From positions 1 to 64,000 of the IMG/VR virus record IMGVR_UViG_3300017917_002593: DNA of 64,000 nucleotides; one strand, given 5' to 3'. Below, piece by piece: positions 43,401 to 60,800 of this stretch. Position numbers and translations under genes: made by a program. Source of the stretch: a virus. Within the stretch, counting starts at the first letter, position 1. Every line of letters begins with the position of its first letter. The notes under the pieces are model-generated. The model saw only the letters and a program-made list of their open reading frames with translations, was not told where the DNA came from and did no database searches.

Positions 43401-44067
43401 AAATATTTTAGATAACGGACCGACTGCTGCCGAAGAAAGAAGAGCAATAAAGCAAACAATGAACACCAGCGTTGATGTTCAACGAGCATTTAACTTATTA
43501 AATGCAAACAAAGACTTTATCAAAGCTGAAGTAATTGCCTACATTGCAAATGAATTTGGCGGATTCCAGTACAACAAACAAAAATGTAGAAGAGACGTTG
43601 GTCTAATGATCGATGCGTTAGTTGCTGACTTAGCTACTGGAGGAAACTTCCGTGCAGTTGAAGCGGCTAAAACTTACTACACAAGAGAAGGTACTTATCA
43701 TATTGTTACTGTTGAAGACAACGTAAGAAATCCTTTATTGTTTGTTGACGGTAGCACTGTAAACTTCTATCAGAGAAGCTATCAATCTGCATCTGGATAC
43801 CTATTCGAATACTGCGGAGCAGGTACACAGTACGGTGCATTGCCTCAGGTAGGTAGAGTTGATCCTGTCCAAAGCAAGGAAGTAGTTCAGTTAAATAATG
43901 GTAAGGTGTTCTTTACTTCCACTGACCAGAACGGCGATTTCCGTATTGGACCAACGTTAGTAATTAGTCAGGCAACTGGTGTGTTGTCAGGCAGAACATT
44001 TGAAAAGAGTTTATTTGCTCAGATGACACCATTCATCTTAGCAGTTGAAGCAGGTGGCGGCGAATAA
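37498..44067 (+). CDS. Giant virion fibre-like protein P1 (2189 aa): pectin-lyase-like beta-helix interrupted by 8 phycobiliprotein-like helical repeats
   Basis: LYVNENGSDDNDG...ACRTI...IKVAPGYYAE beta-helix entry motif; 8 x Y[DN]xxKCxRD repeats. Confidence 0.75.
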   Translation: MAVGRITGPLLAQNLLRDGVDIAVETDLLYIDVKNGRIGVRTDIPRTELDVNGTLTTKVLIADTATIGLVTIESSTSSSTISTLFGPLNVNPGGNDWLYINSTASVRGDVYATGNFYANGNIKLGDTTSSDTIELLGEVQSDILPFISSGTFSTYVSTLTGLTVTDFYTNTEIVSEYSLGNTSSYWQNAYLQNVFTRKIDTVGTETDVQFFPDIPRLERTLNKSVTINGDIRVYGGNPLGTFPVVNNILYVNENGSDDNDGRAMDASRACRTITGATRSPYFKQGTIIKVAPGYYAEDNPIKLLPYTSVVGDSLRAVFVEPLNKTVDLFHVNSGVYITGMTMLNLRRGEVVRYEPGGAGTYTTGAYCVAFPPLLENPIDLFHSPYIQNCTNQSGPWLYDGTMFVPNQTVQLPLVVATATYASSTTTITVTIQPELSAKQLEIGMAVNGSGILIEDDLPIASIEKIENIDPNFRNAKQLLTSNKDFIKDEIIAYVNTNYPGLNYNQDKCRRDAGYVLDALIYDAILGGNRKIVEAGRAYFQGNANILGDELIPTIAAFERMKTFAFAIVANTDLSSIKTPANSGIQIIDTNLTGGEIAQPNIVKLMDLLIDILRNNGGYENAAALLNANRGFIQAETVAFVNKTYVGQPIPSFTYDRAKCFRDVGYVIDAIANDLLYGGNQQTVAAGEAYIGGAAIPGEADETIAAFNYLGMIIRDVVLQNEINDGYQTTVTQVTNLITGTNAAIELMTRNIQIINSYIDDGAFSVPVVSNSAQSSIPGIVNSYNLIVANKAFLQHEVVNYIDVTFTNLDFVYNEDKCARDTALIFDGLVLDLVHGGSSQSTFAGLQYWNQTNTVIPGEETTTTNAFAYAKDISKTIIQGIPLTTILGTLTQYISTGSDLTVANLLGEKFDTVISVITNGTAGITDLIEPNGDINTTTLYTSAIDLLIGNKDFIADEVIAWIEQTKTPGFTYDQTKCRRDVGYVIDSVAMDLLRGGNRQSIQAGVYYYGYNSTSTVLVNEVPQTMAAYKYMKSLIEKVVQRIPATKTYQTEFAQNLDYGAATLDEARIIGDNIDLIRTIIRKGPAAAPAQVPIGIAVSTSTNVSKAATLLAANKDFIVAEVVEFVNKTFIQPFQFNYNEEKCFRDVGLIVDAIAGDIIKRSNVKSIEAGLAYWEGAVSVIEGQLKETAGAIQYAKSIALDVIANNPVTSFYQDSVQTIIPGTSSTTMTVVVSQLINGQLGGGEVARDLVDSNFNAITTILQNGPAYSPFSTDSTLTQFVVTLTTSTVKAASNDILYFGETTVYPIEDKNLPGMWTENGEADRRIDPNGSGGGALVDGNAPSRRSPIQSFVFDAFTQITQGGRGIHIINEGYAQLVSVFTIFCNVAVETDSGGIASITNSNNNFGDICLQSKGYGKRKFGGTVYNPENIAYNELTNEFEANEYYPQGYFPTRQQVCVFVPDPLNRPHISLVMEVVPPDQYVNYDGVVVPYINEQGYPGFLTAVINTATLTTGSFVVSGIDVTGASIGQTVYIKDQFGYEAADNGEGARYISTGTTIVDISYQSITLSNPINFGGGEYGNPFYFDIYCCGNAYYNVLTSKPAVSPYPIGQSKIIGQETETIDAIDHLKEITNFVVANIAYTGTYTTAVPQSINTEFIGGASAIPFINERLDIISNVILSGPQAAPEVRTTGTRAENYASAIELLNQNKIFIQNEVVAYVDDTFGGFVYDEAKCQRDVGLIIDSIAMDMLYDDTTQSTFAGLQYWNQTSYVDGIGGQITTTTAAIAYAKSLALSVTSNNVVIGQRFDTILEILQLGTANVSNIVVANGYRTTDPGALADYAALQSNKASIQSQVISWISSNYPSFTYDQAKCSRDIGYIIDSVSIDLIHGGNRQSIQAGVYYYGFDQGSSAIAGEIPQTAAAYNFIKSIVGDIVTGTPISPKYQNTVTQVTNLLPGTSVEAAALQSKISVITNILDNGPTAAEERRAIKQTMNTSVDVQRAFNLLNANKDFIKAEVIAYIANEFGGFQYNKQKCRRDVGLMIDALVADLATGGNFRAVEAAKTYYTREGTYHIVTVEDNVRNPLLFVDGSTVNFYQRSYQSASGYLFEYCGAGTQYGALPQVGRVDPVQSKEVVQLNNGKVFFTSTDQNGDFRIGPTLVISQATGVLSGRTFEKSLFAQMTPFILAVEAGGGE

Positions 44068-44078
44068 AGGAGAAATAA

Positions 44079-44465
44079 ATGGCATTAATTCCATTAAACA
44101 CGTTTAAAACAAAAACAAAAGTATTAGATACTAATTCAACATCAACAGTATACGTTGCACCAATTGGCGTAACTTCTATTGTACTAATGGCTCAAGTTGC
44201 CAATGTTGATCCGGCAGCGGCACATACTATTACCTTTAGTCATCATAGGAGATTTAGAGTGCTCCCTGATGCCCAAGGAAATAACGCTCAAGATCCAAAC
44301 ATTACAACTGAGTTGGTGCAAAACTTTGAAGTCCCACCTAATGATAGTGCAGCATTAATTACAGGCAAGATGATTCTCGAAAGTCAAGATAGTATTAGAG
44401 CCAGTGCTGACGCGAACGGTGTCATGAAATTAGTTCTAAGTATTCTTGAAACAGCCAACAATTAA
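44079..44465 (+). CDS. Small structural/adaptor protein, paralog of 36311..36628
   Basis: SD AAGGAG; TVYVAPIGVTSIVL..VAN...KMILESQDSIRASAD. Confidence 0.65.
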   Translation: MALIPLNTFKTKTKVLDTNSTSTVYVAPIGVTSIVLMAQVANVDPAAAHTITFSHHRRFRVLPDAQGNNAQDPNITTELVQNFEVPPNDSAALITGKMILESQDSIRASADANGVMKLVLSILETANN

Positions 44466-44478
44466 TTAAGAGAAAGCA

Positions 44479-47400
44479 ATGCCACGTTTATTAAGTAATA
44501 GAAAACCAGTAGCAAGACCATCTGAGTTAAAAGAAAACAGATGGGAATATTTAAATCTACAGCAGGCTCAGCCTGCATTGGGTCCTGCACCTGAAGCAAA
44601 TACCGGTTTTACTCTGGAAACAGATGAAAACGGCAAAGTTACCTATACTAATACACTTGGCAAACTTGCATTTGACGAGCAAGTCATTTCCGGTACATTA
44701 CCGGGAGTGGATATTGAAATTGATTCTTCTATCAATAACGGAGAAATTGTCTTAACTCCATTACAGACTGCAAGAATTGCAGGTAATTTATCTGTTCAAG
44801 GCGACGAGATTGTTGATGGAAACTTTACTGTAAGAGGTATTCCTGAAGGTACTGCACCTTTAGTAAGTAATACACTTTATGTAACTCCAGACGGTAATGA
44901 TGAAAATGACGGAACAGCAATGGATAGAACTCGTGCTTGCCGTACAATCAGCGGTGCTGTTCGTAGTCCGTTTTATCAACCAGGTACTGCTATTAAAGTT
45001 ATGGCAGGTACATATTTTGAAGACAACCCAATTCCTTTAAAGCCTTATACATCTGTTGTTGGCAACGACTTGCGTACAACGTTTGTTGAACCTCTAAACA
45101 AAGATTTAGATTTGTTCCACGTTAACTCTGGTGTTTATATTGCACAGATGCAGATGCGTAATTTACGCAGAGGAAGCGTTGAACGATATGCACCAGGAGG
45201 AGCAGGAACATACACTACAGGTGCTTACTGTGTTGCGTTTCCTCCTAACTTAGAAAACCCTATCGACGTTTACTACTCACCGTACATTCAAAACTGTACC
45301 AACCAATCTGGACCTTGGTTAAAAGATGGAACCATGATGGTTCCTAACCAAACCGTTCAAATTCCGTTGGCAGCAGGTACCAGTACATGGACTGCCGGAG
45401 TTGATCAAATCACAGTAACGTTATACACTGGTACTGTAGTAGTCGGTATGGCAGTTAATGATGCAGCGAATGAAGGTTATCGCAATGCTCAATTGTTGTT
45501 AAAGAAAAATAGAGAATTCTTACAAAAGCAAACTGTTGCATACGTTGAAGATGCTTATCCTGATCTTGTTTATGATCAAGCCAAATGCTACAGAGATGTT
45601 GGCTACATTGTCGATGCGGTTGCAGGCGATGCAAGATTTGGTGGAAACAAACGTAGTATCGAAGCAGGCCTTTCCTACTGGAGAGGAAACACTTCATTAA
45701 TTGCAGGAGAACAAGGCGAAACTGCTGCGGCAATTAACTATCTACGAGATATTTCTTTACAAGTTATCACCAACACCACAGTTACTAATATTTTTAACAC
45801 TTTGTCAAATCAGGTATTTGATTTGGCATTAGATGGAGGGTCAGTAGTATCGACTCGTGCAACAGACAGTTACAATTTAATTACTGAAATTCTGTTAAAC
45901 GGAGAAACATCAGCTCCTGATCAGCCTACACCTGATTTATTGGGATTAATCTACCCAACTGGATTGAGTCCTAATGATGTTAATGTTGCATCAACTGTAA
46001 CAGCAGTTACACAATTAACAACAAACACATATCTTGTTACATTAAGTACCTCGACTGTAAGTCCAAGTGACAATGCAACAATTTATTTTGGTTATACTAC
46101 AACATATCCATATCTCGATGCAGATGTGCCGCCGGAATGGTCAACTAATTTAGCAGAAGGCTATGTTGACCGCAGATTAGATCCTATCGGATCTGGTGGC
46201 GGAGCACTGGTTGACGGTAACGCACCGAGCTTAAGAAGCCCTATTCAATCGTTCGTATTTGATGCGTTTACACAGTTGAACCAGGGCGGTATTGGTATTC
46301 ACATTATTAACAACGGCTACGCACAGCTTGTATCTGTGTTTACGATTATGTGTAGTCAAGCTGTTATTGTTGAGAATGGTGGTATTGCATCTATTACTAA
46401 CTCTAACGCAAACTTTGGTGATACATGTTTAACTGCAAAAGGTTTAGGTAAACTTGCTTTCCAAGGTTTCGTAGTTAACCCTGCTTTTCCAACTAATGTA
46501 CCTAACGGCGAATATTATCCATTAGGTTACTGGCCTCAGAAACAGGTCATGGAAGTCTTTATTCCAAGTGATAGAGATCGTCCTCACATTGGCCAAGTTA
46601 TGGAAGTGGTTCCTCCTGATACATATCTCAATTTTGAAGGAGAACGTGTACCATTTATCAACGAAGCAGGCTATCCAGGATACTTAATTGCAACAGTCAA
46701 CACCAATACTATTAGTACTGGTAGTTTTATTATCAATGATGTTGATGTTACTGGAGTATCTGTAGGTCATACTTTATATGTTCGAGATGTATTAGGAAAT
46801 GAAGTACATCCTGAAACAGGTATTCCTTATGTTACTACTGGAACACAAGTTGTTGACGTTAACTATAGACAAATTGTATTAGATCGACCAATCTTGGCCG
46901 GCTATACAGATGCATTAAATCCAAGTTATTTTAATTTATATTTCTGCGGTAACGCCTATTACACAGTATTATCGAGTAACATTGATCCTACTCTTGCATC
47001 AACAGTTACTACTGAAGTAACTTTAGTTGCAGGGCAAGAAACAACAACATCTTTAGCAGTTAGCTATGCTAAAAATTTAGCTCTTCGTGTAATTCAAAAC
47101 ACTCCTATTAATGGATTTGTCTACAATCAAGCAAAATGCAAAAGAGATACTGGATTAATTGTTGATGCACTGGCAGTAGACCTCTTGCACCCAACTTCAG
47201 AACTTAGCCAAAGTAATTTTGCCGGCTTGCAATATTGGAATCAAGAAAATTATGTCGGCACAATTGCAAATGAAATTACAACAACTACAAATGCTGTTCA
47301 ATTTGTAAAAGAATTGGCAATGGAAATTGTTCAAGGTATTACTACCGGAACAAGATATCAGAGTACAGTTACACAGAATATTGGTCTTCCGTTAGCATCT

Positions 47401-50400
47401 TCAGTTGAAGCAGCAATTATTTCCAATGATTTTGATGTTATCATTGATATCCTTGTTGATGGTGTTGCAGGAGTAACCGATAAGATCATTCCAAACGGCG
47501 AACAAACTTCCGATGAAAATACAGCAAGAGCCTATTCGTTGCTCACTGCTAACAAAGCCTATATTCAAGCAGAAGCTGTAGCATTTGTTGAGTATACAAA
47601 AACTCCGGGCTTTACTTATGATTCTGCAAAATGCTATAGAGATGTTGGCTATATGGTTGACAGTGTTGCGTTTGACTTGCTACATCCTAACGGAAGTGTT
47701 CCAAGTAACAGACAGGCAATTCAAAGTGGAGTTTACTACTATGGATACATCAGCACAAGCACATCTATTGTTGGTGAAATCGTTCAGACAACTGCGGCCT
47801 ACAACTATATTAAAGATTTAGTTCCATACATTGTTAAAGGAATTACAACTTCGACATATCAGACTTATATTGATCAAGTGACTGATTTAACTCCTGGCAC
47901 AGATGCCGAAGTTAACGAAATCCAATCTTATATTGATCATATTACTAATGTTATTAATGTTGGTCCTGCCGCTGCCAGGGTTAAAGTACCTGTTAGCTTG
48001 ACACAGTCAACTGATCCTAATGTTTATAACGCATACAGAATGTTAAATGCAAATAGAGCATTTATTCAAGAATCTGTTATTGCTTACATTAACAAAACTT
48101 ACGACTCTGGAACATATCAGTCTGTTTACCCGCAAGTATTTGATCAAACATTAACTGGAGGTGTTGATGCTGTTCAAAGCCTTGGAGAAAAATTTGACAT
48201 CATTTCTGGCATCATTATCAATGGCGCAGATAGTAGTCCTGAAATTATTCGTCCAAGACAATATGTTGACTCAAATCAAAATATTCTAAATGCTAAAAAG
48301 TTACTTGAAAAGAATAGATTGTTCATCCAAGCAGAAACTGTAGCGTTCGTTGACAGTATCTGGCCAAGCAAGTTTAGCTATGATCCTGCTAAGTGCAGTC
48401 GCGACACTGGATTAATTGTTGATGCCCTTGCACAAGATTTGTTATTCAATGGTACAAGCCAAAGTACATTTGCAGGTATTCAATATTGGAATCAAGGGTT
48501 AACCGTTATACCTGGCGAACAAACAACAACTACCAATGCTGTCAAGTACTTGAAGTCTGTTGCACAGGATGTTATTTTAAACAAACAACAAAGATACAAG
48601 TATCAAAGTACAGTTACTCAAGTTGTTAGCACAATAACCAGTTCAACTACTGCTACAAGTCTATCTCTTGGAACAAAATTTGACACAATTATTAATATTT
48701 TAGAAACTGGCACAGACGGAATTACTGATAAAATTGTTCCTAACAGTTTAGATCAGTCTACTTCTTCTGCTGTTCTTGCTGCCTATAACTTACTACAGGC
48801 AAATAAAGAATATCTACAACATGAAACGGTTGCTTGGGTAGAAGCCAATGCTAACTTTAACTACGATCAAGTAAAGTGTGCTCGAGATACTGGTCTAATA
48901 GTTGACAGCATCGCTTTTGATATTTTATATCCAACAGCAACAGACAGTCAAAGTAATTTTGCCGGTCTGCAATATTGGAATCAAAGCAACTATGTTGGTA
49001 CTATTGCTAACGAAATTACCACTACAACTAATGCAATTACACATATCAGTTCTATTGCACAGAAGATTGTAGTCGGAGATACCAGCGGAACACGCTATCA
49101 AAATACTGTAACTCAAACAACTTCTACTGCGACTGGTATTGTAGGAGATGCAGTTGTAGTTGGTACAAACTTTGGAGTGATTCTAAATATTCTTTCCACA
49201 GGTACAGCAGGTGTTACAGATATTATTGTACCAAACGGCAGAAGAAGTATTACAACTTCCACAGTTAACGCTTATAATTTATTGGTTGCAAATAGATCGT
49301 ACCTTGTAGCAGAAGCTATTGCTTTTGTTGAAGATACAAAAACAGCCGGATTTAATTACGATCAAACTAAGTGTGCAAGAGATGTTGGCTACATGGTCGA
49401 CAGCGTAGCCTTTGACTTGTTACATGGCGGCAACAAACAGAGTGTACAAAGCGGAGTTCTCTACTACGGATATGACAGTACTTCAACTTCTATTCCAAAT
49501 GAGATTCCTCAGACCACTGCGGCTTATAATAGAATTAGAGAAATACTACCAAGAATCTTGTCTGGTGTAGAAATTTCTCCAAGTCAAGGGAACACAACCA
49601 AACAGATTACCTACATGTTGCCAGTCAACAATGCTACAATACTATCTGCACAGGCAAAGGTTGACAAGATTACAAGAATTATTAACAACGGACCAAGTGC
49701 CGCAAGTGAACTAACTCCAATTAGTTTAACTCCAAGCTCTGATGCAAATGCAGATCGTGCCTATGATCTATTAGTAGCAAATCGAGATTTTATCAAAGAC
49801 GAAATTATTGCCTATATCAATAGTACCTTTACTGGATTTGTCTACGATAAAGCTAAGTGCTTTAGAGATGTTGGCTATATGGTTGACAGTGTAAGTTTTG
49901 ATATACTTTACGGCGGTAATAGACAAAGCATTCAAAGCGGTGTCTACTATTACGGATATCAAGAAGATAGCAGTGCTATTGCTGGAGAAATTCCTCAAAC
50001 AACAGAAGCCTACAACTTTATTGAAAAGATTGTAGGAGACATTGTCACAGGAACATTGATAACTAATCCTCAACAGGCTTCTGTTCCGCAAGTTACTAAC
50101 TTGAGCTTTACTTATAACCAAAACAAGTGCTCAAGAGACACAGGAATTCTTGTTGATAGTTTTATTACTGATTTACTATTCAACGAAAACGGTTACACAC
50201 AAAGTAATTTCTCTGGTTTACAATATTGGAATCAGAATGGTTACACAGGATCTATTGCAAGTGAAATTACTACAACAACTAACGCAGTTAGATATCTAAG
50301 AAGCCTTGCTGAGCAAATTGTTATTAACGGCACATCTACTGCAACTGTAGTAAGATATTCTACAACTGCAAGCCAAGTTACTAACTTAACTACTGCAACT

Positions 50401-52779
50401 TACGATCAATTGTACAGAGTTAGAAAAGATTTTAATGTAATTGTTGATATCTTAACAACAGGCACAAGCGGAGTAACTGACAAGGTTGTAGCAAACAGCA
50501 TTGAACCTGTATCTAATGATGCAGTAAATGCCTACGAATTGCTAATTGCTAACAAACAATATCTACAAGAGCAAGTAATTGCCTATGTTGAAAGTACTAA
50601 GACTGCTGAGTTTGAATATGACATGTCTAAGTGCTATCGCGATGTTGGATATATTGTAGACAGTGTAGCATTTGACATCAAGTACGGTGGAAATAGGCAA
50701 GCTATTCAAAGCGGTGTTTACTATTACGGATTCTCTACATCTACTTCTGCTATTGCAGGAGAAATTGATCAAACAATTGCAGCATACACAAGATTAAAAG
50801 AAATTCTTCCAGCTATTGTAACCAATACTGCGATTGCTAAGAGTCCAAATAATACACTAACTCAGGTAACAAACTTAACAACTGCTACATCAGCAGAAGG
50901 TATTGAGTTAGAAAACATGGTTGATTTAATTACAGGTATTATCACAACGGGTCCGTCTGTTGCAGAAGTTCAACAACCTGTAAGTTTAACAGTATCTTCT
51001 TCAACATCTGTAACTGCTGCTGCCGAAATTTTAGTTGCAAACAGAAACTTTATTGTTGAAGAAGTTGTTAACTATATTAACTATGTACACTTAGTTGGTA
51101 CAGAGACAGAAGCACAGGCTATTAAAAATAATGTTAATTTAATTAATAACATTATTGAATATGGACCTGATGAAGTTTCTGTTAAGGAACCAATTGCATT
51201 AGCAAGAAGTACCGGTACTGCTGTAGTTAATGCTGCTAAACTATTGGCTGCAAACAGAGATTTTATTCGTGCAGAAACAATTGCCTTTATCAACAACACT
51301 TATAACACTGGCTTCTTATATGACAAGAGCAAGTGCCGTAGAGATACCGGCCTAATTGTTGATAGTCTTGCGTTTGATTTACTCTACAACGGACTAACAG
51401 AAAGTACATTTGCTGGTTTACAATATTGGAACCAAGATACTTATACAGGCACAATTAAAGGAGAAATTACAACTACAACTAATGCTATTAGATACCTAAA
51501 AGAATTAGTACAAGATGTAGTTTTAAATGTGCCAGTTGCTGCAACTACTGGAAATGTAACTTCTCAAGTTATTAACTTAACAACCAGTACAGCAGGTATT
51601 GCAGGTGTTCTTGCTGGTAATGTTGACCTAATGTTAGATATTTTAACAAATGGAACAGCAGGAGTAACAGATCGAATTATACCAAACGGTGTTCGTACAA
51701 CTGCAACTGATAGAGTTAGCGCATACGATCTATTGCAAGCAAACAAGACATTCTTACAAAACGAAGTTGTTGCAAGAATTGATCTTGACAATACTCAGTT
51801 TGAATATGATAGAGCAACTTGCAGACGAGACCTCGGTTATATCATTGACAGTTTAAGTTTTGATATAGTACACGGCGGTAACAAACAGAGTATCACTTCC
51901 GGAGTTTACTACTACGGATTTAATGCTAACGATACTGCTATTGATGACCAAATTCCTCAAACAACTGCGGCCTACAACTATATTAGAGAATTAGTTGATA
52001 GAATTATTAGAGGACAAGCTGTTCCGGTAACATATCAAAAGAAAGTTCCGCAAGTTATTACAACAAACGTCGGAACAACTTTAGAAGTTACCAGTGTAAG
52101 AACTTCAATTGATAATATTACAAATATTATTAATAATGGCCCGTCAGTAGCTCCTACAAAACAACCAATTAGTTTAACTGCAAGTACCAGCACAGATGTT
52201 GTTAATGCATTTAATTTATTGTTAGCAAATAGAGCATTTATACAAGCCGAAGTTATATCTTACATCGATACAGTCTTTACTGATGCTACTAACTACAACA
52301 AAGACAAGTGCTTCCGAGACATGGGCGCAATTGTTGATGCTGTAGGTTATGATTTAATTTACGGTGGAAACTATAACTCTGTCAATACTGGTAATGGTTA
52401 TTTCCTACGCAAAGGACAATACCACTTAGTAAGACTTGAACAAAACGTAACAGATCCTACACTGTTCATTGATGGAGCAACTGTAAGATTCTATCAACAG
52501 AGTTATATTTCTGCTTCTGGTTATCTGTTTGAATATGTAGGTGCTGGTACACAGTACGGTGCTCTACCTCAGGTTGGTACTGCTGACCCGCAACAGACCA
52601 AAGAAGTAGTTCAGTTAAATAATGGTAAAGTATTCTTTACAAGTACTGACCAGAATGGTGACTTCCGCATTGGTCCGACACTTGTTATCAGTCAAAGTAC
52701 TGGTATCTTAAGTGGACGAACATTCCAAAAGTCGCTGTATGCGGAAATGACTCCGTTTATCTTGGTAGTAGGAGCATAA
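44479..52779 (+). CDS. Giant virion fibre-like protein P2 (2766 aa), paralog of P1, with 12 phycobiliprotein-like repeats
   Basis: Same beta-helix segments and near-identical C-terminus as P1; 12 x CxRD repeats. Confidence 0.75.
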   Translation: MPRLLSNRKPVARPSELKENRWEYLNLQQAQPALGPAPEANTGFTLETDENGKVTYTNTLGKLAFDEQVISGTLPGVDIEIDSSINNGEIVLTPLQTARIAGNLSVQGDEIVDGNFTVRGIPEGTAPLVSNTLYVTPDGNDENDGTAMDRTRACRTISGAVRSPFYQPGTAIKVMAGTYFEDNPIPLKPYTSVVGNDLRTTFVEPLNKDLDLFHVNSGVYIAQMQMRNLRRGSVERYAPGGAGTYTTGAYCVAFPPNLENPIDVYYSPYIQNCTNQSGPWLKDGTMMVPNQTVQIPLAAGTSTWTAGVDQITVTLYTGTVVVGMAVNDAANEGYRNAQLLLKKNREFLQKQTVAYVEDAYPDLVYDQAKCYRDVGYIVDAVAGDARFGGNKRSIEAGLSYWRGNTSLIAGEQGETAAAINYLRDISLQVITNTTVTNIFNTLSNQVFDLALDGGSVVSTRATDSYNLITEILLNGETSAPDQPTPDLLGLIYPTGLSPNDVNVASTVTAVTQLTTNTYLVTLSTSTVSPSDNATIYFGYTTTYPYLDADVPPEWSTNLAEGYVDRRLDPIGSGGGALVDGNAPSLRSPIQSFVFDAFTQLNQGGIGIHIINNGYAQLVSVFTIMCSQAVIVENGGIASITNSNANFGDTCLTAKGLGKLAFQGFVVNPAFPTNVPNGEYYPLGYWPQKQVMEVFIPSDRDRPHIGQVMEVVPPDTYLNFEGERVPFINEAGYPGYLIATVNTNTISTGSFIINDVDVTGVSVGHTLYVRDVLGNEVHPETGIPYVTTGTQVVDVNYRQIVLDRPILAGYTDALNPSYFNLYFCGNAYYTVLSSNIDPTLASTVTTEVTLVAGQETTTSLAVSYAKNLALRVIQNTPINGFVYNQAKCKRDTGLIVDALAVDLLHPTSELSQSNFAGLQYWNQENYVGTIANEITTTTNAVQFVKELAMEIVQGITTGTRYQSTVTQNIGLPLASSVEAAIISNDFDVIIDILVDGVAGVTDKIIPNGEQTSDENTARAYSLLTANKAYIQAEAVAFVEYTKTPGFTYDSAKCYRDVGYMVDSVAFDLLHPNGSVPSNRQAIQSGVYYYGYISTSTSIVGEIVQTTAAYNYIKDLVPYIVKGITTSTYQTYIDQVTDLTPGTDAEVNEIQSYIDHITNVINVGPAAARVKVPVSLTQSTDPNVYNAYRMLNANRAFIQESVIAYINKTYDSGTYQSVYPQVFDQTLTGGVDAVQSLGEKFDIISGIIINGADSSPEIIRPRQYVDSNQNILNAKKLLEKNRLFIQAETVAFVDSIWPSKFSYDPAKCSRDTGLIVDALAQDLLFNGTSQSTFAGIQYWNQGLTVIPGEQTTTTNAVKYLKSVAQDVILNKQQRYKYQSTVTQVVSTITSSTTATSLSLGTKFDTIINILETGTDGITDKIVPNSLDQSTSSAVLAAYNLLQANKEYLQHETVAWVEANANFNYDQVKCARDTGLIVDSIAFDILYPTATDSQSNFAGLQYWNQSNYVGTIANEITTTTNAITHISSIAQKIVVGDTSGTRYQNTVTQTTSTATGIVGDAVVVGTNFGVILNILSTGTAGVTDIIVPNGRRSITTSTVNAYNLLVANRSYLVAEAIAFVEDTKTAGFNYDQTKCARDVGYMVDSVAFDLLHGGNKQSVQSGVLYYGYDSTSTSIPNEIPQTTAAYNRIREILPRILSGVEISPSQGNTTKQITYMLPVNNATILSAQAKVDKITRIINNGPSAASELTPISLTPSSDANADRAYDLLVANRDFIKDEIIAYINSTFTGFVYDKAKCFRDVGYMVDSVSFDILYGGNRQSIQSGVYYYGYQEDSSAIAGEIPQTTEAYNFIEKIVGDIVTGTLITNPQQASVPQVTNLSFTYNQNKCSRDTGILVDSFITDLLFNENGYTQSNFSGLQYWNQNGYTGSIASEITTTTNAVRYLRSLAEQIVINGTSTATVVRYSTTASQVTNLTTATYDQLYRVRKDFNVIVDILTTGTSGVTDKVVANSIEPVSNDAVNAYELLIANKQYLQEQVIAYVESTKTAEFEYDMSKCYRDVGYIVDSVAFDIKYGGNRQAIQSGVYYYGFSTSTSAIAGEIDQTIAAYTRLKEILPAIVTNTAIAKSPNNTLTQVTNLTTATSAEGIELENMVDLITGIITTGPSVAEVQQPVSLTVSSSTSVTAAAEILVANRNFIVEEVVNYINYVHLVGTETEAQAIKNNVNLINNIIEYGPDEVSVKEPIALARSTGTAVVNAAKLLAANRDFIRAETIAFINNTYNTGFLYDKSKCRRDTGLIVDSLAFDLLYNGLTESTFAGLQYWNQDTYTGTIKGEITTTTNAIRYLKELVQDVVLNVPVAATTGNVTSQVINLTTSTAGIAGVLAGNVDLMLDILTNGTAGVTDRIIPNGVRTTATDRVSAYDLLQANKTFLQNEVVARIDLDNTQFEYDRATCRRDLGYIIDSLSFDIVHGGNKQSITSGVYYYGFNANDTAIDDQIPQTTAAYNYIRELVDRIIRGQAVPVTYQKKVPQVITTNVGTTLEVTSVRTSIDNITNIINNGPSVAPTKQPISLTASTSTDVVNAFNLLLANRAFIQAEVISYIDTVFTDATNYNKDKCFRDMGAIVDAVGYDLIYGGNYNSVNTGNGYFLRKGQYHLVRLEQNVTDPTLFIDGATVRFYQQSYISASGYLFEYVGAGTQYGALPQVGTADPQQTKEVVQLNNGKVFFTSTDQNGDFRIGPTLVISQSTGILSGRTFQKSLYAEMTPFILVVGA

Positions 52780-52780
52780 C

Positions 52781-54529
52781 GTGGCAATATTATTAAGCGG
52801 AAAAACAAGAAACCCAACAGCACCGAGCGGTTATATTAGTTTAGGTCAGACTCAGGCAGCTCTGGGTAATACTCCGTCTACTGCAACTGGTTATACTCTT
52901 ATAACAGCAAACTCGCAAACTACATATGCTTCAACATTAGGAAAAGTTGAGTTTACATTTACCAACACTGCTAACTTTATAACAAGTACTATTCCGAATG
53001 GCAATGTCATTTATCAACCTAACGGAACAGGAACACTGTATCTATATGGCAATGTTGTAATCCCCAGCTTAGATGCACAAACGGCATTTAAAGGACCAGT
53101 TAAAGCTGCTACAACTGCTAACATTGATTTAATCGGTGGTGCTCCTATAGAAGTTGACGGATATAGTCTCGTATTAAACGATCGAGTATTAGTTCGAGCA
53201 CAGACAAATACAGCAACTAACGGTATCTATGTTGTTAGTTTCTTAGGAAACGGTACTAACGGAACATGGGCAAGATCTGCGGATACCAATACTGCTGAAG
53301 AAATGGCTGCTGCTATTGTTAGTGTTGTTAACGGGGATACACTATCTGGAAGATATTTCTATAACGACTTTAAAAACACCGATACATTAGAAACCGATCC
53401 TGTCAATTGGTACCAACTAATTGCAGATACTAAACCAAATCAAGATCTTTTTAATAAGTTAATAGATGCAACTGATATCGGTACACGTATTCCAGGCCGT
53501 GGTTTCTTTACAGAAATTCAAAGTACAGGAAGTTTTGTTGCCGATAAGCTGCGTCTAACCAGTACTGAAACTTCTACAAGTACACAGAGCGGTGCATTGG
53601 TAGTTGCAGGCGGTGTTGGTATTGGTGGAAATATGAATATCGAAGGTCCTGTAAGGATCTATGATTTAACTTCTGCAACCAGTACATTCTCCGGAGCATT
53701 AATTGTACAAGGCGGAGCCGGATTTAACGGCGATATCTACGCACAAAGATATTTTGCAGAAGGCGAACCACTTGATAATTTATTTTGGAACGGCGGAGAA
53801 ATATCGGCACCGTTAAGAATTAGAAACCCTGCACAAGCTACAAACACTTATTCAGGCGCACTTCAAGTATGGGGCGGAGCTGGAATTGGCGGCGATTTGT
53901 ATGTAGGTAAGAGCATAACACTCGAAACTCCTATCGAAACAGAAAGTGTTTACTTCAGAATGCGTAACACTGCTACTAACGGACAGAGTTATACATGGAG
54001 AGTAGGCGGAAACAACTATGCAGGACAGAACGGCACCAACTTAAACGAAGGTGGCTTATCGTTATATAACGATACTCAAAACGTTTATCGCCTTGCAATT
54101 ACAAAAACAACTGGTAATTTGCTTGTTGGCCCACAAACAGACAACGGCGTCGACAAGCTACAAGTATCCGGAAGTGTTCGTTTTGGGGATGGTCAACTGT
54201 TTACACGCAGTACCAGCATAAATAACACAAGTACTACGGTAATTGACAGTTTTCCTGCTGCAAATTATAGGACTGCGAAGCTTTTAATTCAAATAGCTGA
54301 CGGGGTAGGAGCAAGTGCAAAATTCCATGTAGTAGAAATAGTTGTATTAGTAGACAACAGCGGTAACGTTTATAAGTCTGAATACGGTATTATTACTACA
54401 GGAGGTGCCATAGGGGAGTTTGATGTGGATTATAACATAGGAGGCAATGGTCTAGTAAGATTATTATTCACGGCAGACGCTGCGTCAGCAAAACAAGTTA
54501 AGGTCGTAAGAACCAGCATCAGTAGGTAA
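52781..54529 (+). CDS. Fibre protein P3
   Basis: GTG start; VKAATTANI...RVLVRAQT...NGIYVV...WARSAD domain; STST.SGAL.V.GG.GIG repeats. Confidence 0.7.
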   Translation: MAILLSGKTRNPTAPSGYISLGQTQAALGNTPSTATGYTLITANSQTTYASTLGKVEFTFTNTANFITSTIPNGNVIYQPNGTGTLYLYGNVVIPSLDAQTAFKGPVKAATTANIDLIGGAPIEVDGYSLVLNDRVLVRAQTNTATNGIYVVSFLGNGTNGTWARSADTNTAEEMAAAIVSVVNGDTLSGRYFYNDFKNTDTLETDPVNWYQLIADTKPNQDLFNKLIDATDIGTRIPGRGFFTEIQSTGSFVADKLRLTSTETSTSTQSGALVVAGGVGIGGNMNIEGPVRIYDLTSATSTFSGALIVQGGAGFNGDIYAQRYFAEGEPLDNLFWNGGEISAPLRIRNPAQATNTYSGALQVWGGAGIGGDLYVGKSITLETPIETESVYFRMRNTATNGQSYTWRVGGNNYAGQNGTNLNEGGLSLYNDTQNVYRLAITKTTGNLLVGPQTDNGVDKLQVSGSVRFGDGQLFTRSTSINNTSTTVIDSFPAANYRTAKLLIQIADGVGASAKFHVVEIVVLVDNSGNVYKSEYGIITTGGAIGEFDVDYNIGGNGLVRLLFTADAASAKQVKVVRTSISR

Positions 54530-54543
54530 AAAAGGAACAACAG

Positions 54544-57500
54544 ATGGCACAAATAAAAGATTTCGTCGTCAAACAAGGCTTAGTTGCAGAAGGTAATGCA
54601 CAATCTCTATCAACCACAACTGGTGCTTTGATTGTAGGCGGCGGCGCTGGTTTAGGCGGAAACCTAAGTGTTGGCGGATCTATCAAACGATATGGAAATG
54701 TAGATCAAGGTAGAGAGCACGCACTTGGTGCTCAATTATCTTTACGTGATGCAACATTTACAGACGAATTAGTTAGCGGACGCACAGGATGGGGCGTTGT
54801 AAACTATTTTGGTCAAGCAACATTAGACACAATTAGTGAATCAGCAACTTATACAAACGCTGCAAGTTTGTTTATTAAAGGTGCCCCACAAGCTGGTACA
54901 AACTTAACAATTGAAAAAGCCTGGTCAATCTACATTACTTCAGGTACTGTATTCATTGGCGAGACTCAGGGTAATACATCAACTACATCGAGCCAATCCT
55001 TACAAGTTGCAGGCGGAATTAGTTTCAATAACGGATTAGTTGGTTACGGTGGCGGTAACTTATATGGTCCTTTCGATCTTAACGGAAGTCCGATTGTTAC
55101 TAAAGCTACACAAAACGTAGGTTTGGCAGAATTCCCAGACGGAATTCGAATTACAACTTCAACTCAATCTGTTAGCACAAACACCGGAGCGTTAATTGTT
55201 GATCGTAACGGCGGCGCAGGTATCGGTGGCAATTTATATGTCGGCGGCAGATTTGTTGGAGAAACAACTGGTACATTTTTAAGCACGGTAAACGCTGTTT
55301 CTACATCAACCGGTGCTTTAACAATTAAAGGCGGTCTGGGTGTAGGCGCAGACTTATATGCCGAGAACGGATTCTTTGTATCCGGACAAGCCAGCACAAC
55401 TACTGTAGGCGGAAACAGCTTACAGGTAACAAATAATGGCGGTCTTGGAGTAACTGGCTCTGCAAGATTTGAAAGTCAAGTTTGGATTACAAGTCTATCC
55501 GACAGCACAGGCCCCGGAACAGGTGCATTAATTGTTCAAGGTGGTGCAGTAGTCGAAAGAAATTTAGCCGCCGACACTGCTAAAATTCTAAGTGAAACTG
55601 CTGCAAGTTCAACAGATACTGCGGCATTTACTGTAGTAGGCGGTGTTGGAATTGGCAAGAATTTAATTATTGGAGACGCTGGTAGTTCAACTGGCACTAC
55701 ATTAACTAACGCTTTAGTTGTTGCAGGTGGCGGATATTTCGGCGGCTCTTTAACTGTCGACGGTTCTACTGTAATTAAAGGTGATCTGTATCTGTTAGGT
55801 ACTGGTACACAAGTTACAATCAATAGTACAAACACTTATGTAGTTGACCCAGTTATTGAAATTGGTGGCGGCGTAGACGGTGCAATGTTAACATTGCCTG
55901 ATGTCTATGACAAAGGTTTATTAATTCACTATCAAAATGCTGTAAGTACTGCTACTGATTTCCGTGCATTCGTTGGTTTAGAAAATACCACTGAAAGATT
56001 TATCTTCAAGCAGAATATTTTACCAGGCGTGGGCGGCAACGATCCGTTCGGTGACTATTATAATAGCGGAACTTGGAGCACATTAGAAGCTGGTAGTTTA
56101 ATTCTACGCAATACTACACCTGCAACTGATGAAAATACTGGAGCATTGATTGTTGCAGGCGGTTTAGGTGTAAGTGGAAACAGTGTATTTGCAAGTAATA
56201 CAGTTACATTTATCAGTGAAGCATTCTCCATAACTAATATTGTAAACAATGCTATTCAAGTTCCTAACGGCGGCATTGGTTCAAAATACCTATATATTGA
56301 AGAAACTGGTTACATTGGTAACGCAAGAATTCTTACTACCGGTACTGTTAACGAAAACATTGGCGGTATTTTTACACTAACATTTAGTTTTGTTAACTTA
56401 ACAGAGTCTAACAGTACAGATACAGGCGCAGTTACTGTTGCAGGTGGTGTTGGTATTGGCGGCAATTTAAATGTTGGCGGCAATCAAACGCTGGGCGGAA
56501 CACTACGAATCTTAAATGATACGCAGTCTAACAGCACTGACACTGGCGCATTAACTGTTGTTGGCGGAGTTGGCATTGGTAAAAATGTTAATATCGGTGG
56601 TCAGACAAGGATATACGATACATCTGCAAGCACATCAACTACTACTGGTGCATTAATTGTCGGTGGTGGTGCTGGAATTGCTGGTGATTTAGTAGTCGGA
56701 GGATTAGTAACTGTTGTTAATACTCTAACAGTAGAAACATTAAAAGTTACAAGCGATCTTGATAGTACTGCAACTAACAATGGTGCTGTAGTTATTACTG
56801 GCGGCTTAGGCGTTGGTAAGACTATAAATGCCAATGCAATTAATATTCAAGTTGCAACTATTAATAGTGGATCAAATGCTATTTCCACAACATCAGGCGA
56901 CTTAGTTGTAGCCGGTGGTGTTGGCATTGGTAAAGATGTATTCATTGGCGATCATTTAAGCGTTCAAAGTACTGAAACTTCTACAACAACTAATACTGGT
57001 GCTGTAACTGTTGCTGGCGGCGTTGGCGTAACCAAAGATGTAGTTATCGGTGGAACAATTACAAGAACTGGTCAGGTAACTAAAGACATAATTAATTCTT
57101 TAGGTGCTGGTTTAGTTTTAAGTTCGTCTACTTACGTTGATAACTTAACTACTGGCAGTCCGACTGATTTAGCTATCCACAGTATTGGTCGTCCTACTAT
57201 TCAAGGCGTGTTAAATCCAACTTGGACTAACGCTGCTACTTTATATATCGACGACGAACCGCTATTTACAGGCGGCGCAGATGCTACTAACAAGTGGGCA
57301 ATTAATGTCAAGAACGGCAAAGTACGTATCGGATCTGCTGCTACAAACTTAGGAACAACCAGTTCTGGTGCATTGCAGGTAGCTGGCGGTGTCGGAGTAG
57401 GCGGTAACTTAACTGCTGGTGGCCAGATTAAAGGAACTACATTCAAAGTTGCTGACAACATGATCAGCAGTGCTGTAGTTACTGGCAAAAATGACACGAA

Positions 57501-57798
57501 CCCAGTAACAATTGACACGTATGTTGGTAATGAATTTACTACTGCAAAATATTTGGTTCAAGCAGTTGACTTAGGTACACCTAATAAGTTCCATGTTGTT
57601 GAACTAATGGTAACTTACGACGGTGCAGGTTCCACAAACGGCGTTTACATTAGTCAATACGGAATTATAACCAATACAGGTGAGTTGGGAACTTTTGATG
57701 TTAGCTACAATGCAGGTAATATCAATGTTATCTTTACTCCAAATTATACACCAATTAGTATGAACATTAGAGCTTTACGTATAGCTATAATGACATAA
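54544..57798 (+). CDS. Fibre protein P4 with many STxTGALxVxGGxGIG shaft repeats
   Basis: More than 10 repeat copies; C-terminal domain homologous to that of P3. Confidence 0.75.
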   Translation: MAQIKDFVVKQGLVAEGNAQSLSTTTGALIVGGGAGLGGNLSVGGSIKRYGNVDQGREHALGAQLSLRDATFTDELVSGRTGWGVVNYFGQATLDTISESATYTNAASLFIKGAPQAGTNLTIEKAWSIYITSGTVFIGETQGNTSTTSSQSLQVAGGISFNNGLVGYGGGNLYGPFDLNGSPIVTKATQNVGLAEFPDGIRITTSTQSVSTNTGALIVDRNGGAGIGGNLYVGGRFVGETTGTFLSTVNAVSTSTGALTIKGGLGVGADLYAENGFFVSGQASTTTVGGNSLQVTNNGGLGVTGSARFESQVWITSLSDSTGPGTGALIVQGGAVVERNLAADTAKILSETAASSTDTAAFTVVGGVGIGKNLIIGDAGSSTGTTLTNALVVAGGGYFGGSLTVDGSTVIKGDLYLLGTGTQVTINSTNTYVVDPVIEIGGGVDGAMLTLPDVYDKGLLIHYQNAVSTATDFRAFVGLENTTERFIFKQNILPGVGGNDPFGDYYNSGTWSTLEAGSLILRNTTPATDENTGALIVAGGLGVSGNSVFASNTVTFISEAFSITNIVNNAIQVPNGGIGSKYLYIEETGYIGNARILTTGTVNENIGGIFTLTFSFVNLTESNSTDTGAVTVAGGVGIGGNLNVGGNQTLGGTLRILNDTQSNSTDTGALTVVGGVGIGKNVNIGGQTRIYDTSASTSTTTGALIVGGGAGIAGDLVVGGLVTVVNTLTVETLKVTSDLDSTATNNGAVVITGGLGVGKTINANAINIQVATINSGSNAISTTSGDLVVAGGVGIGKDVFIGDHLSVQSTETSTTTNTGAVTVAGGVGVTKDVVIGGTITRTGQVTKDIINSLGAGLVLSSSTYVDNLTTGSPTDLAIHSIGRPTIQGVLNPTWTNAATLYIDDEPLFTGGADATNKWAINVKNGKVRIGSAATNLGTTSSGALQVAGGVGVGGNLTAGGQIKGTTFKVADNMISSAVVTGKNDTNPVTIDTYVGNEFTTAKYLVQAVDLGTPNKFHVVELMVTYDGAGSTNGVYISQYGIITNTGELGTFDVSYNAGNINVIFTPNYTPISMNIRALRIAIMT

Positions 57799-57804
57799 TA
57801 AATA
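57799..57804 (+). promoter_or_regulatory. Late promoter core TAAATA upstream of P5
   Basis: Intergenic ATAAATA directly after the P4 stop. Confidence 0.5.
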
Positions 57805-57843
57805 TACAAAATTTACAAGCCGTCAAGTGGAAAGGGAAACTGA

Positions 57844-60800
57844 ATGGCACAAGCTGATTTCATCGTTAAAAACGGTGCGGTAATTCTTAATGGTCTTACT
57901 GCAACCTCAACAAGCACAACAACAGGTGCCTTAATAGTTCAAGGTGGCATTGCCACATCGGGTCGATCTACATTTGGCGGCGATTTAAACATCGTTAGCA
58001 ATACAAGCTCAACTAACTCAACAACGGGTGCCTTAACAATCTTAGGCGGCCTTGGAGTATTTGGTGACGTAAACATTGGAACAAACCTAAAAGTCAGAGG
58101 CGTTGACCTCATGACTTTCGACGATCATATTCACTACGTGTCTGACAGCACCGGTAATGATAACAATGACGGTCATAGACTTCAAAGTGCTTTCAGAACA
58201 GTCAAACGTGCAATTGAACAAGCACAAGCAGGCGATACTGTTTACATCGAAGCAGGTACGTATCAAGAAGAATTTCCAATTACAGTACCTGCTGGTGTAA
58301 GCATCCGTGGTGCCGGACTTCGCGAAGTTTATGTTTACCCAACAACTGCAACTAACACACAAACTGCATTCTTATTAAACGGCGAAACAACAATTAGCGA
58401 TTTCACAGTTGGCGGATTCTACAAGCCAGGATATGCGTTTAAGTTTGCACCAGGTGCAAAAATTACTACACGTAGCCCATACGTTGAAAGATTCTCGGTT
58501 ATTACAAGAGGATCAAACCCACAACCTGGAGATCCCTACGGTTATGACAGTAATGACGCAGGTGGCGGCGCATACTTAGACGGTGCAAACGTTGACTCTA
58601 CCAGTTTAGAAGCTGCATTTTTATTCAACGAAGCAACATTTATTACTCCAAGCTCTACCGCAGTTCATATTAAGAACGGTACACGAGTAGAATTACTAAA
58701 CGGCTTTAGTTATTTTGCAGATAAAGCTATTGTAGGCGAAAGCGGAACAACTGGTTGGGGCGATCAAGGACGTACAAGACTTCGTCTTGCAAACTCGACA
58801 GGAACATTTACAGTAGGCCATTCACTACACTATGTAGGATCTACTGGCACGTTATTAGCCACCGGTGTTATTGACGAAGTTACACCTGAATACATTTACC
58901 TTCAAGGTAAAGCATCTGGCTTTGTAGAAGCACAAGACCGTACAGGAAAAACAATTAACGTTTACGGAAATACTGTTATCAGTAGCTTTGAACGTAAGTT
59001 TGGTACAGGTGCGGCATACTTTAGTACCGATGGCGATTTATTAGACATTGTTAGTGATGCTGACATGCAGTATGGATTTAGTTCCTATACTCTCGAATCG
59101 TGGGTACACTTAACACAGAACGGTAGAAAGCAGTACATCCTCAATAAAGGTAGTATACCTTCTACAACTTTTGGTTTGTACATCGGCGCTGATAACAAGC
59201 TAACTGGACAACACGGTACAACACTCTTTACTTCTACTAATGTTTTAAACACTGGTACTTGGTATCATATCATGATGAGCCGTGATATAAACAATGTAAA
59301 CAGATTGTTTATTAACGGAAACTTGGAAGCTACTGTAACTGCAACTTCAAGTATTAGTAATGCTGATAGTTTAACTATTGGTGGTTATGCAGGAACACCA
59401 AATTTAAGTTTGAGAGGTTATCTGGACGAAGTTAGAGTTAGTACAACTCCGAGATATACTGGCTCCTTTACACCTCCTACAAGCGCATATGCAAGTGATA
59501 TAAGCACTACAGTTCTTCTTCACTGTGACGGTGCTAACCTAAGTACTGGATTCACTGACGACGGACTTGGTAGTCAAAATGTATTTTCTACTACTGGCAC
59601 ATATACTGCCGCAGTAGTAGCAAGTGCTCAGCAGATTAGTCTTGCAGATTATAGACAATTTGGTGGAGAACTACGTTGTATTGGTAGTGCTGCCTGTTAC
59701 GGTAACTATGGTATATATGCCGACGGTGAAGGTATTGACTTCAAAGCAATCGCTTTCAATATGAGCTATGTTGGTAGCGGAAAAGATTTTACCAACGATC
59801 CTGCTCTTGCTGTTCAAGCTAACGAAATTGTTAGACTAAATGGCGCAAAAGTATATTTCCAAACTGTTGACCACATAGGCGATTTCCGAGTTGGTCCTGA
59901 GTTCCGTATCAACCAACGTACTGGTAACGTTGACTTTGGCACAGCAAACTTCCGCTTGGGACCTTTGTCCAGCTTGACAATTAGTGATGGAGTTAACACC
60001 AGCGTTCTACAACCTACAAGTATTCAAGTTGGACAATTGCTTTTCTCTGGAAATAGAGTACAGACAATTAGTGGTAACTTAACAATTGATCCTGCAGGTA
60101 CATTAACAACTATTGAAAGTGATTTGCAGGTCAACGGCGCTCTCAACTTCACTGGACAAATTCGTGCAACCAGTGTAGAAAATTCTACAAGTACTACAAC
60201 AGGCGCATTAGTTGTTAGCGGCGGCATTGGATTAGCTAAAGATTTATGGGTTGGAGGAAATGCTACCGTTGTCGGTGATTTAGTTGTTAAGGGTAAGACA
60301 ACAGTTGTTAACAGTACACAGACAAGCATTGCAGATCCAATATTAGATTTAGGTATTGCACCGGACGGTGCTGACTTAACAGTTGACGACAATTTTGATA
60401 GAGGTCTATTACTTCACTATAATACAGGAACTGGAACAACATCTTACACAAGAACATTCTTGGGTATGGATAACAACACCGAAACTCTTATCTATAAGAC
60501 TCGTGTTATTACCGGACCTGCAGGAGAGTATGTACCACAATTCATTAACTCTGGTTTTTGGGGTGCTGCAAAATTTGGTAGCCTTTCATTAGCAGATACT
60601 ACACCCGGCGGAACTCTTAATTCTGGAGCACTTCAGGTTGCAGGCGGAGCCAGTTTTGCCGGCGCAGTTTATGCCAACACATACTACGATTCTACTGGTC
60701 TAATTCTTTCTACAGCTACTATTGGACAATATGTTGTAACACAGGCGTTATCTGGTGAAGATATATCGGTATCGAGCATCCCAGTAACTCCGGGACGAGG

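Follow-up and report, generated by a model that had tools for sequence, protein, structure and literature searches.

Conserved end modules suggest that the long tail-fibre proteins of a jumbo phage are joined in gene order

When a phage encodes several very long fibre proteins in one row of genes, how are their products put together? This question is raised by a 64,000-nucleotide stretch of viral DNA (hereafter the window), the first 64 kb of the 86,211-bp IMG/VR virus record IMGVR_UViG_3300017917_002593. Downstream of its head genes lies an unbroken plus-strand train of fibre genes, P1, S128, P2, P3, P4 and P5, in which S128 encodes a small protein of 128 amino acids (S) and the others encode fibre proteins whose ends recur from gene to gene. 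Comparing these ends within the window and across related viruses, we arrive at a reading to which we give slightly better than an even chance: the fibre proteins would be joined head to tail in gene order through two conserved joints. In one, a C-terminal domain X and the S protein would meet an N-terminal module x, and in the other a C-terminal domain Y would receive an N-terminal peptide y. For brevity we call X and Y sockets and x and y plugs.

The modules are readily recognised in the window. A preliminary description of the locus had placed X at the ends of P1 and P2, x at the starts of P2 and P3, Y at the ends of P3 and P4, and y at the starts of P4 and P5, and alignments found each of them there. 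P1 and P2 align over their last ~217 residues (local score 725), and the final 100 are ~85% identical. The two x modules (P2 residues 24–112 and P3 residues 18–94, ~89 residues) share 36% identity (E 9e-8), and the last ~105 residues of P3 and P4 align as Y with a score of 176. The y peptide is the shortest module, with M-A-Q..D-F-[VI]-V-K-x-G falling within the first 17 residues of both P4 and P5; in these two its core occurs in one copy per protein and at the N-terminus only, where shuffles lead one to expect 0.05–0.08, and nowhere else in any of the six fibre proteins examined (P6 lies beyond the window). Since the T-T-G-A-L-x-V-x-G-G stretch that follows is an internal repeat, y proper comprises only ~15 residues. 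The likeness of P1 and P2, earlier described for X, indeed includes X but is not restricted to it, since the two proteins are paralogous along almost their whole length. An internal X-like domain of P5 lacks the last ~24 residues of terminal X, which points to this tail as the chain-end-specific part of the domain. The last 130 residues of X matched no Pfam family (55 X domains, E ≤ 0.1) and had no sequence relative in the PDB.

In relatives, the end modules are far better conserved than the bodies that they flank. Mean pairwise identity is 82% for X against 29–41% for the corresponding bodies, 44% against 26–29% for x, 43% against 30–32% for Y, and 43% against 27–28% for y.

The order of the modules is conserved as well. 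An IMG/VR scan with X gave 72 loci, and X, x, Y and S profiles together with a y pattern were run on all of their open reading frames (ORFs). X and Y matched at the C-terminal end, at a median of 1–2 residues from the stop, and x at residue 1–11. The neighbour could be read clearly for 82 X-ending genes, of which 61 were followed by S and then an x-gene and 21 by an x-gene directly; for one further X-ending gene the ORF call of the neighbour is doubtful. All 21 direct cases occur in lineages that have two X genes. The S proteins between X- and x-genes in these loci are 126–140 residues long, and their almost constant presence does not fit the earlier view of S as an optional part of the X–x joint. 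The x-genes themselves span 250 to 3391 residues and end in X, in Y or in neither. Genes after a Y-ending gene carried a relaxed y pattern in 55 of 67 distinct N-termini, the rest being near variants except one; among other genes, 2 of 331 did so. Where a locus has one or two sockets and plugs, their numbers are equal, and in none of the loci examined was an X-ending gene seen to close the row of fibre genes.

Isolated cyanophages show the same order. A search based on S yielded 80 cyanophage-type loci, with X directly upstream of S in 77 of 78 and a downstream gene starting M-x-[KR]-[FY]-x-S-G-R. Cyanophage S-8S55 (Kyanoviridae), for example, encodes an 821-residue X-ending fibre, a 117-residue S homologue (39% identity, E 4e-24) and a 1452-residue fibre starting M-P-K-F-I-S-G-R. 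Phage P-SSM2 contains two separate triads, 021/022/023 and 293/294/295, at ~17 kb and ~216 kb; both have an x-type head downstream, and in one of them the S domain forms the head of a 330-residue protein. At least 17 records of isolates, from about a dozen cyanophages, have X and S at abutting coordinates. A scan with a distant S representative gave no match, and the adjacency rule rests on the nearer members of the S family. The preliminary description had itself named homologous loci as the place to look for arbitrarily ordered termini; their order is not arbitrary, X→(S)→x and Y→y being kept in ~150 loci and in isolated cyanophages.

Relatives with a short x-gene show a candidate third conserved joint, W→w, at the gene after the x-gene (loci L035, L036, L039, L041-L044, L049, L050, L054-L060, L068-L070 and L073). 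Its C-terminal end reads ..N-L-L-Y-T-P..G-D-F-W-I-D..F-W-I-Q-I, and the next gene starts M-x-L-x-F-P-x-N-P..T-Y-x-W-x-G-x-A-W. The two motifs resemble each other, and the N-terminal one also heads P-SSM2 genes 296 and 024.

What might these modules be? Judged by sequence profiles, Y is related to the C-terminal domain of T4 gp9. A Y profile built from 62 sequences had one significant match in the PDB, residues 177–278 of T4 gp9 (1pdp/1qex/1s2e; E 6.4e-5), and matched gene 9 only in the whole T4 genome (E 1.2e-7). The Pfam family T4_gp9_10_C (PF23618) was matched by 28 of the 62 Y domains at E ≤ 0.1 (best 4.3e-6), the Y of P3 reaching 20.3 bits (E 7e-4) against a curated cut-off of 25. It is at the C-terminal domain of gp9 that the long tail fibre attaches, via the gp34 N-terminus (PMC10253068). 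No relation between S and Y was seen at profile level (hhalign probability 0.3%).

S belongs to a large family with a predicted jelly-roll fold. The model of S128 has a predicted local distance difference test (pLDDT) score of 88, and among solved structures it comes closest to nucleoplasmin cores, the trimeric KHP40 cement protein, Ena pilus subunits and TNF-like trimers, at a generic level of similarity (Z ~9). Look-alikes in BFVD (template modelling score 0.7–0.8) include virion and virion structural proteins of S-SCSM1, S-TIM5 and MaMV-DC, and matches in the ESM Atlas are unnamed viral clusters only. S matched no Pfam family, and its sole PHROG is phrog_1276, a function-unassigned family. 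At E ≤ 1e-3 the S family comprises 1014 representative clusters (50% identity level). The S-SCSM1 record labels its triad gp026/gp027/gp028, in which gp027 is the S homologue, as virion proteins, and the S-SCSM1 paper reports a mass-spectrometry virion proteome of 45 proteins; for gp027 itself, the place in the virion is the depositor's label. About a dozen of the best 150 clusters are 800–1480 residues long, with an insertion that splits the first strand from the remaining jelly roll. In some homologues, insertions of 800–930 residues are built of the fibre's own repeats, and in two loci (L045:10451-13222, L053:10464-13658) these are phycobiliprotein-like repeats as in P1 and P2. Fibre-type insertions favour a structural role over that of a chaperone, and together with the virion label of the homologue they make S look structural.

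Upstream of P1 (35237–37366), a 354-residue gene, S105 and a 244-residue gene starting M-K-F-Y-K-R may form a second S-type triad. S105 matches S128 with an hhalign probability of 88% (E 3e-6). The order of the three genes is kept in ~16 relatives, in which S105 is always followed by a ~240-residue M-K-F-Y-K-R gene. Searched for by hhalign, X-like and x-like ends flanking S105 (at the C-terminus of the 354-residue protein and the N-terminus of the 244-residue protein) were not found.

On the reading that we favour, P1–P5 would be segments of a multi-protein tail-fibre apparatus, each attached by its N-terminus to the preceding C-terminus. The first joint would have three parts, namely C-terminal X with its ~24-residue tail, the jelly-roll S and the x of the next fibre, and would function like the T4 knee (gp34 C-end, gp35 and gp36); one S gene could serve both X–x joints. 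At the second joint, the y peptide of the following protein would fit into the gp9-like beta domain Y, much as the gp34 N-terminus is held by gp9. The genes would stand in the order in which their products are joined, and new segments could be added whenever a gene gains a matching head and end, as P2 may have done with its x, its P1-like body and its X. This reading draws on end modules that are fixed in position, better conserved than their bodies and invariant in their adjacency, on the relation of Y to gp9 and on the modelled fold of S; from these we infer physical binding, its polarity and stoichiometry, and the choice between one long and a branched fibre. The preliminary description had proposed docking between these ends, and the adjacency order and the gp9 relation are in line with that part of its proposal. 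S, which it treated as optional, is almost always present at the X–x joint, and its analogy to the docking domains of assembly-line enzymes gives way to a closer one, the T4 long tail fibre. A single linear chain of >8600 amino acids would be only one of several topologies. At a T4-like density, ~8860 residues would reach roughly 0.4–0.5 micrometres, as we estimate from gp34 (1289 residues, ~70 nm).

Several observations weigh against serial joining. Profiles of X, S and x scored no higher than noise against T4 gp34–gp38, so that no relation to the C-terminus of gp34, to gp35 or to the N-terminus of gp36 was detected. By eye, y can be likened to the gp34 N-terminus (M-A-E-I-K-R-E-F-R-A-E-D-G-L), a candidate rejected after the y profile gave no match in three tests. 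The predicted structure of whole P3 has a mean pLDDT of 34 and leaves an eight-stranded beta-barrel fold for Y unsupported structurally. P2 (x...X) and P4 (y...Y) each carry both members of a pair, so that purely type-specific docking would make them self-polymerise; some finer specificity would be needed to prevent this. A candidate for docking specificity, the X-tail signature with A-[IV]-E ahead of S and V-V-G ahead of x, was rejected because the Shine-Dalgarno sequence of P3 overlaps the V-V-G codons. P-SSM2 also offers an exception, since the gene after a weak Y-ending protein there encodes a protease and lacks y. Because the loci are all related by synteny, the adjacency counts do not represent independent events. 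Finally, Y correlates in distance with the next y (r 0.75) more than with its own protein's N-terminus (r 0.63; Mantel/regression). Y and the next y lie only 10–80 nucleotides apart on the DNA, which confounds this co-variation, and we do not use it as evidence; co-variation tests here are confounded by shared descent and physical adjacency alike.

The chief alternative is that the end modules are functional without being one another's partners. X and S would then make up a cap at the distal end, an adhesin or a folding nucleus of the X-bearing fibre itself, x and y would anchor independent fibres to a common baseplate or hub, and their adjacency would be old operon order, for which the synteny of all loci speaks. 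A gene for a tip-binding adhesin or chaperone usually lies right after its fibre gene, as in T4/T2 gp37–gp38 and lambda Stf–Tfa, and T2-type gp38, encoded just downstream of gp37, sits at the gp37 tip. The position of S directly behind a fibre gene would suit such a role, and the carbohydrate-binding modules CBM22 and CBM16 are among the Foldseek look-alikes of S. Conserved N-terminal anchors common to several fibres are moreover the rule in branched receptor-binding protein systems (PMC10253068), which would account for x and y. Against this, X (at its 82% mean identity) and S belong to the best-conserved parts of the locus, a pattern unlike that of receptor-binding tips, and the two unlinked P-SSM2 triads both have an x-type head downstream. 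Also against independent anchoring are the equal numbers of sockets and plugs, the lack of any locus seen to end its fibre genes on X, and the relation of Y to a domain known to hold the N-terminus of the next fibre. We regard it as rather unlikely, while taking it seriously. A further idea takes X for an intramolecular chaperone that, like those of endosialidase and T5 pb1, is removed by cleavage once folding is complete, and is thus absent from the mature fibre and no socket. Conserved C-terminal domains on variable fibres are typical of intramolecular chaperones, X is just such an end, and one cyanophage X-bearing gene is annotated 'endosialidase'. We nevertheless think this highly improbable: the Pfam and PDB searches of X described above returned neither Peptidase_S74 nor any other relative, an X-like domain also stands inside P5, and P6 has a different and more typical chaperone-like end.

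A remaining alternative takes the pattern as a mere by-product of tandem duplications across gene boundaries, running from mid-P1 via S to the next x and likewise over Y and y, with no joining role, a possibility that the preliminary description had itself raised. It draws on the makeup of P2, an x head on a P1-like body that runs from ~residue 224 of P1 to the end; the first ~223 residues of P1, its N-terminal anchor, have no counterpart in P2. The two bodies (38900–52420) contain phycobiliprotein-like repeats with a K-C-x-R-D motif, P1 matching PF00502 at 36.3 bits and an X-flank profile matching phycocyanin alpha chains at E 0.005. Most relatives have one X gene and one x gene only, which suggests that P2 was inserted in one lineage. 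In a tree of x heads, the x of P3 falls within the heads found behind S in single-X loci, while that of P2 forms a separate long-branched clade, a placement that suggests insertion of P2 between S and the ancestral x-gene. P2 thus probably came about when an x head was fused, by duplication or recombination, to a P1-like body with an X end, and boundary-spanning duplication is probably how this happened. As a full explanation it is improbable, since it accounts for the origin of the doubled modules and not for their maintenance: the single-copy triad is conserved from jumbo phages to the cyanomyoviruses of the Kyanoviridae, the x of P2 is no recent copy of that of P3, no remnant of a second S lies between P2 and P3, and P2 is intact in ~10 relatives at 2437–3391 residues. 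The P2–P3 boundary itself (52765–52783) is tight, with one base between the P2 stop (TAA, 52777–52779) and the P3 start (GTG, 52781) and the P3 Shine-Dalgarno sequence GGAG inside the V-V-G-A codons of P2; such overlap and near-touching ends suggest that P2 and P3 are probably translationally coupled.

Serial joining could also be one instance of something wider. Aquatic myoviruses may share a general, extendable joining grammar made up of S connectors, gp9-like sockets and one or more additional joints (W→w), by which very long fibres would be assembled strictly in gene order and segments inserted by boundary-spanning duplication or head swapping. S itself might carry a side branch, as its insertion variants of 800–1480 residues suggest. 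We offer this wider reading tentatively and think it rather doubtful.

The source of the window is a T4-like jumbo phage. Its genes include a portal, a prohead protease, a major capsid protein, gp5/gp6/gp25-like baseplate proteins and a late sigma factor; the RaK2/GAP32 group, Sinorhizobium phage Phosso and a Vibrio jumbo phage have major capsid proteins with ~68–70% identity to this one. PHROG matches along the fibre train are tail-fibre and virion structural families. Megablast of the fibre region against isolated phages gave no match, and a scan of the region for promoters and terminators found nothing exceeding shuffles. The features of the train are listed below.

Table. Fibre genes, end modules and S proteins, in positions of the window
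Feature	Description	Position	Strand
P1	2189-residue fibre protein with its own N-terminal anchor and C-terminal X	37498..44067	+
X domain of P1	last 100 residues, ending ..M-T-P-F-I-L-A-V-E..	43765..44064	+
S128	small jelly-roll protein (predicted; 128 residues) between X and x, candidate junction piece	44079..44465	+
P2	2766 residues: x head, P1-like body, X end	44479..52779	+
x module of P2	~75 residues, M-P-R-L-L-S-N-R ... Y-L-x-L-x-x-A-Q-P-A-L-G	44479..44703	+
X domain of P2	final V-V-G-A codons contain the P3 Shine-Dalgarno sequence	52477..52776	+
P3	582 residues, x head, Y end, GTG start one base past the P2 stop	52781..54529	+
Y domain of P3	relative of T4 gp9 C-terminal domain, by sequence profile	54212..54526	+
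P4	1084 residues: y head, Y end	54544..57798	+
y peptide of P4	M-A-Q-I-K-D-F-V-V-K-Q-G-L	54544..54594	+
Y domain of P4		57481..57795	+
P5	y head, internal X-like domain, different C-end	57844..64000, to 64569 of record	+
y peptide of P5	M-A-Q-A-D-F-I-V-K-N-G	57844..57891	+
Internal X-like domain of P5	without the last ~24-residue tail of terminal X	59713..59934	+
S105	S128 paralogue, two genes upstream of P1	36311..36628	+

In the full 86-kb record P5 has 2241 residues. Part of it (58129–60222, residues 96–793) is matched, with E down to 5e-172, by PHROG families that bear the name 'baseplate wedge subunit'. A wedge identity was rejected, P5 having no T4 homologue and only cyanophage fibre matches, and we therefore treat P5 as a fibre protein. 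X-bearing fibre genes are called 'baseplate wedge subunit' in RefSeq and 'long tail fiber' in GenBank, and the wedge label looks unreliable. Beyond the window lies a sixth fibre gene, P6, of 2367 residues (record 64608–71711; L077:7608-14711), with long collagen G-x-y repeats and a different, chaperone-like C-terminal end. The C-terminal end of P5 and the N-terminal end of P6 are of further, other types, and small genes follow P6. In Cyanophage S-8S55, several 2OG-Fe(II) oxygenase genes flank the fibre triad (L001 2754-3368, 17400-23359); such genes near fibres may mean that the fibre proteins are modified.

The principle at work here would not be new, since head-to-tail and branched fibre assembly via conserved adaptors is established for T4, CBA120 and RaK2. 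The X–S–x triad and its spread, the role of the S family and the serial gp9-like sockets at fibre C-ends appear to be new to the literature, where we found no description of them. If the joints are real, a large and uncharacterised fibre architecture could be read by sequence alone, from gene order and end modules, in marine and freshwater cyanophages and in jumbo phages. S (phrog_1276), a widespread family of virion proteins with no assigned role, would acquire a function, the T4 gp9 socket would be shown to be reused serially on fibre proteins, and the joints would offer natural cut points for the study of host-range modules in laboratory phage–host pairs.

How do these loci compare with fibre systems that are already understood? 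As with T4/T2 gp38 and lambda Tfa, a small gene follows directly on a fibre gene whose C-terminal end its product would contact. S matched no tail-fibre chaperone family (Tfa/gp38), a distant relation being possible. Unlike those proteins, S has a homologue labelled as a virion protein, always precedes a fibre gene with a conserved head, and tolerates fibre-type insertions of ~900 residues.

CBA120 TSP1–4 and RaK2 gp526–534 form branched complexes that combine T4 gp10-like XD platforms with conserved N-terminal heads; the RaK2 fibres are built from nine proteins, one of which, gp529, ends in a gp9-like domain (PMC10253068). The resemblance to the present locus would lie in conserved N-terminal modules that dock variable bodies on the platform domains of a neighbour. 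Pfam scans of P1–P6 found no gp10-like XD platform domain, and the bodies here are phycobiliprotein-like and beta-helical repeats rather than depolymerase spikes. The C-terminal position of the sockets suggests serial rather than side-branch joining.

The closest parallel is the T4 long tail fibre, in which trimeric fibre proteins are joined N-terminal end to preceding C-terminal end, with a small connector at one joint. In T4, the C-terminal end of gp34 binds gp35, and the knee is formed by the products of genes 34, 35 and 36 (PMC9576892); a fibre end, a small connector gene and the head of the next fibre thus follow one another in the same gene order as X, S and x. The order of T4 genes 34–37 is also the order in which their products are joined, as we propose for P1–P5, and the C-terminal domain of gp9 is related to Y. 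The two systems differ in scale, S being a jelly roll of 128 residues against the 372 of gp35 and the segments being 2–3 times longer. They differ as well in where the gp9-like socket stands: in the jumbo phage it is found at the C-terminal end of the long fibre proteins themselves, twice in series.

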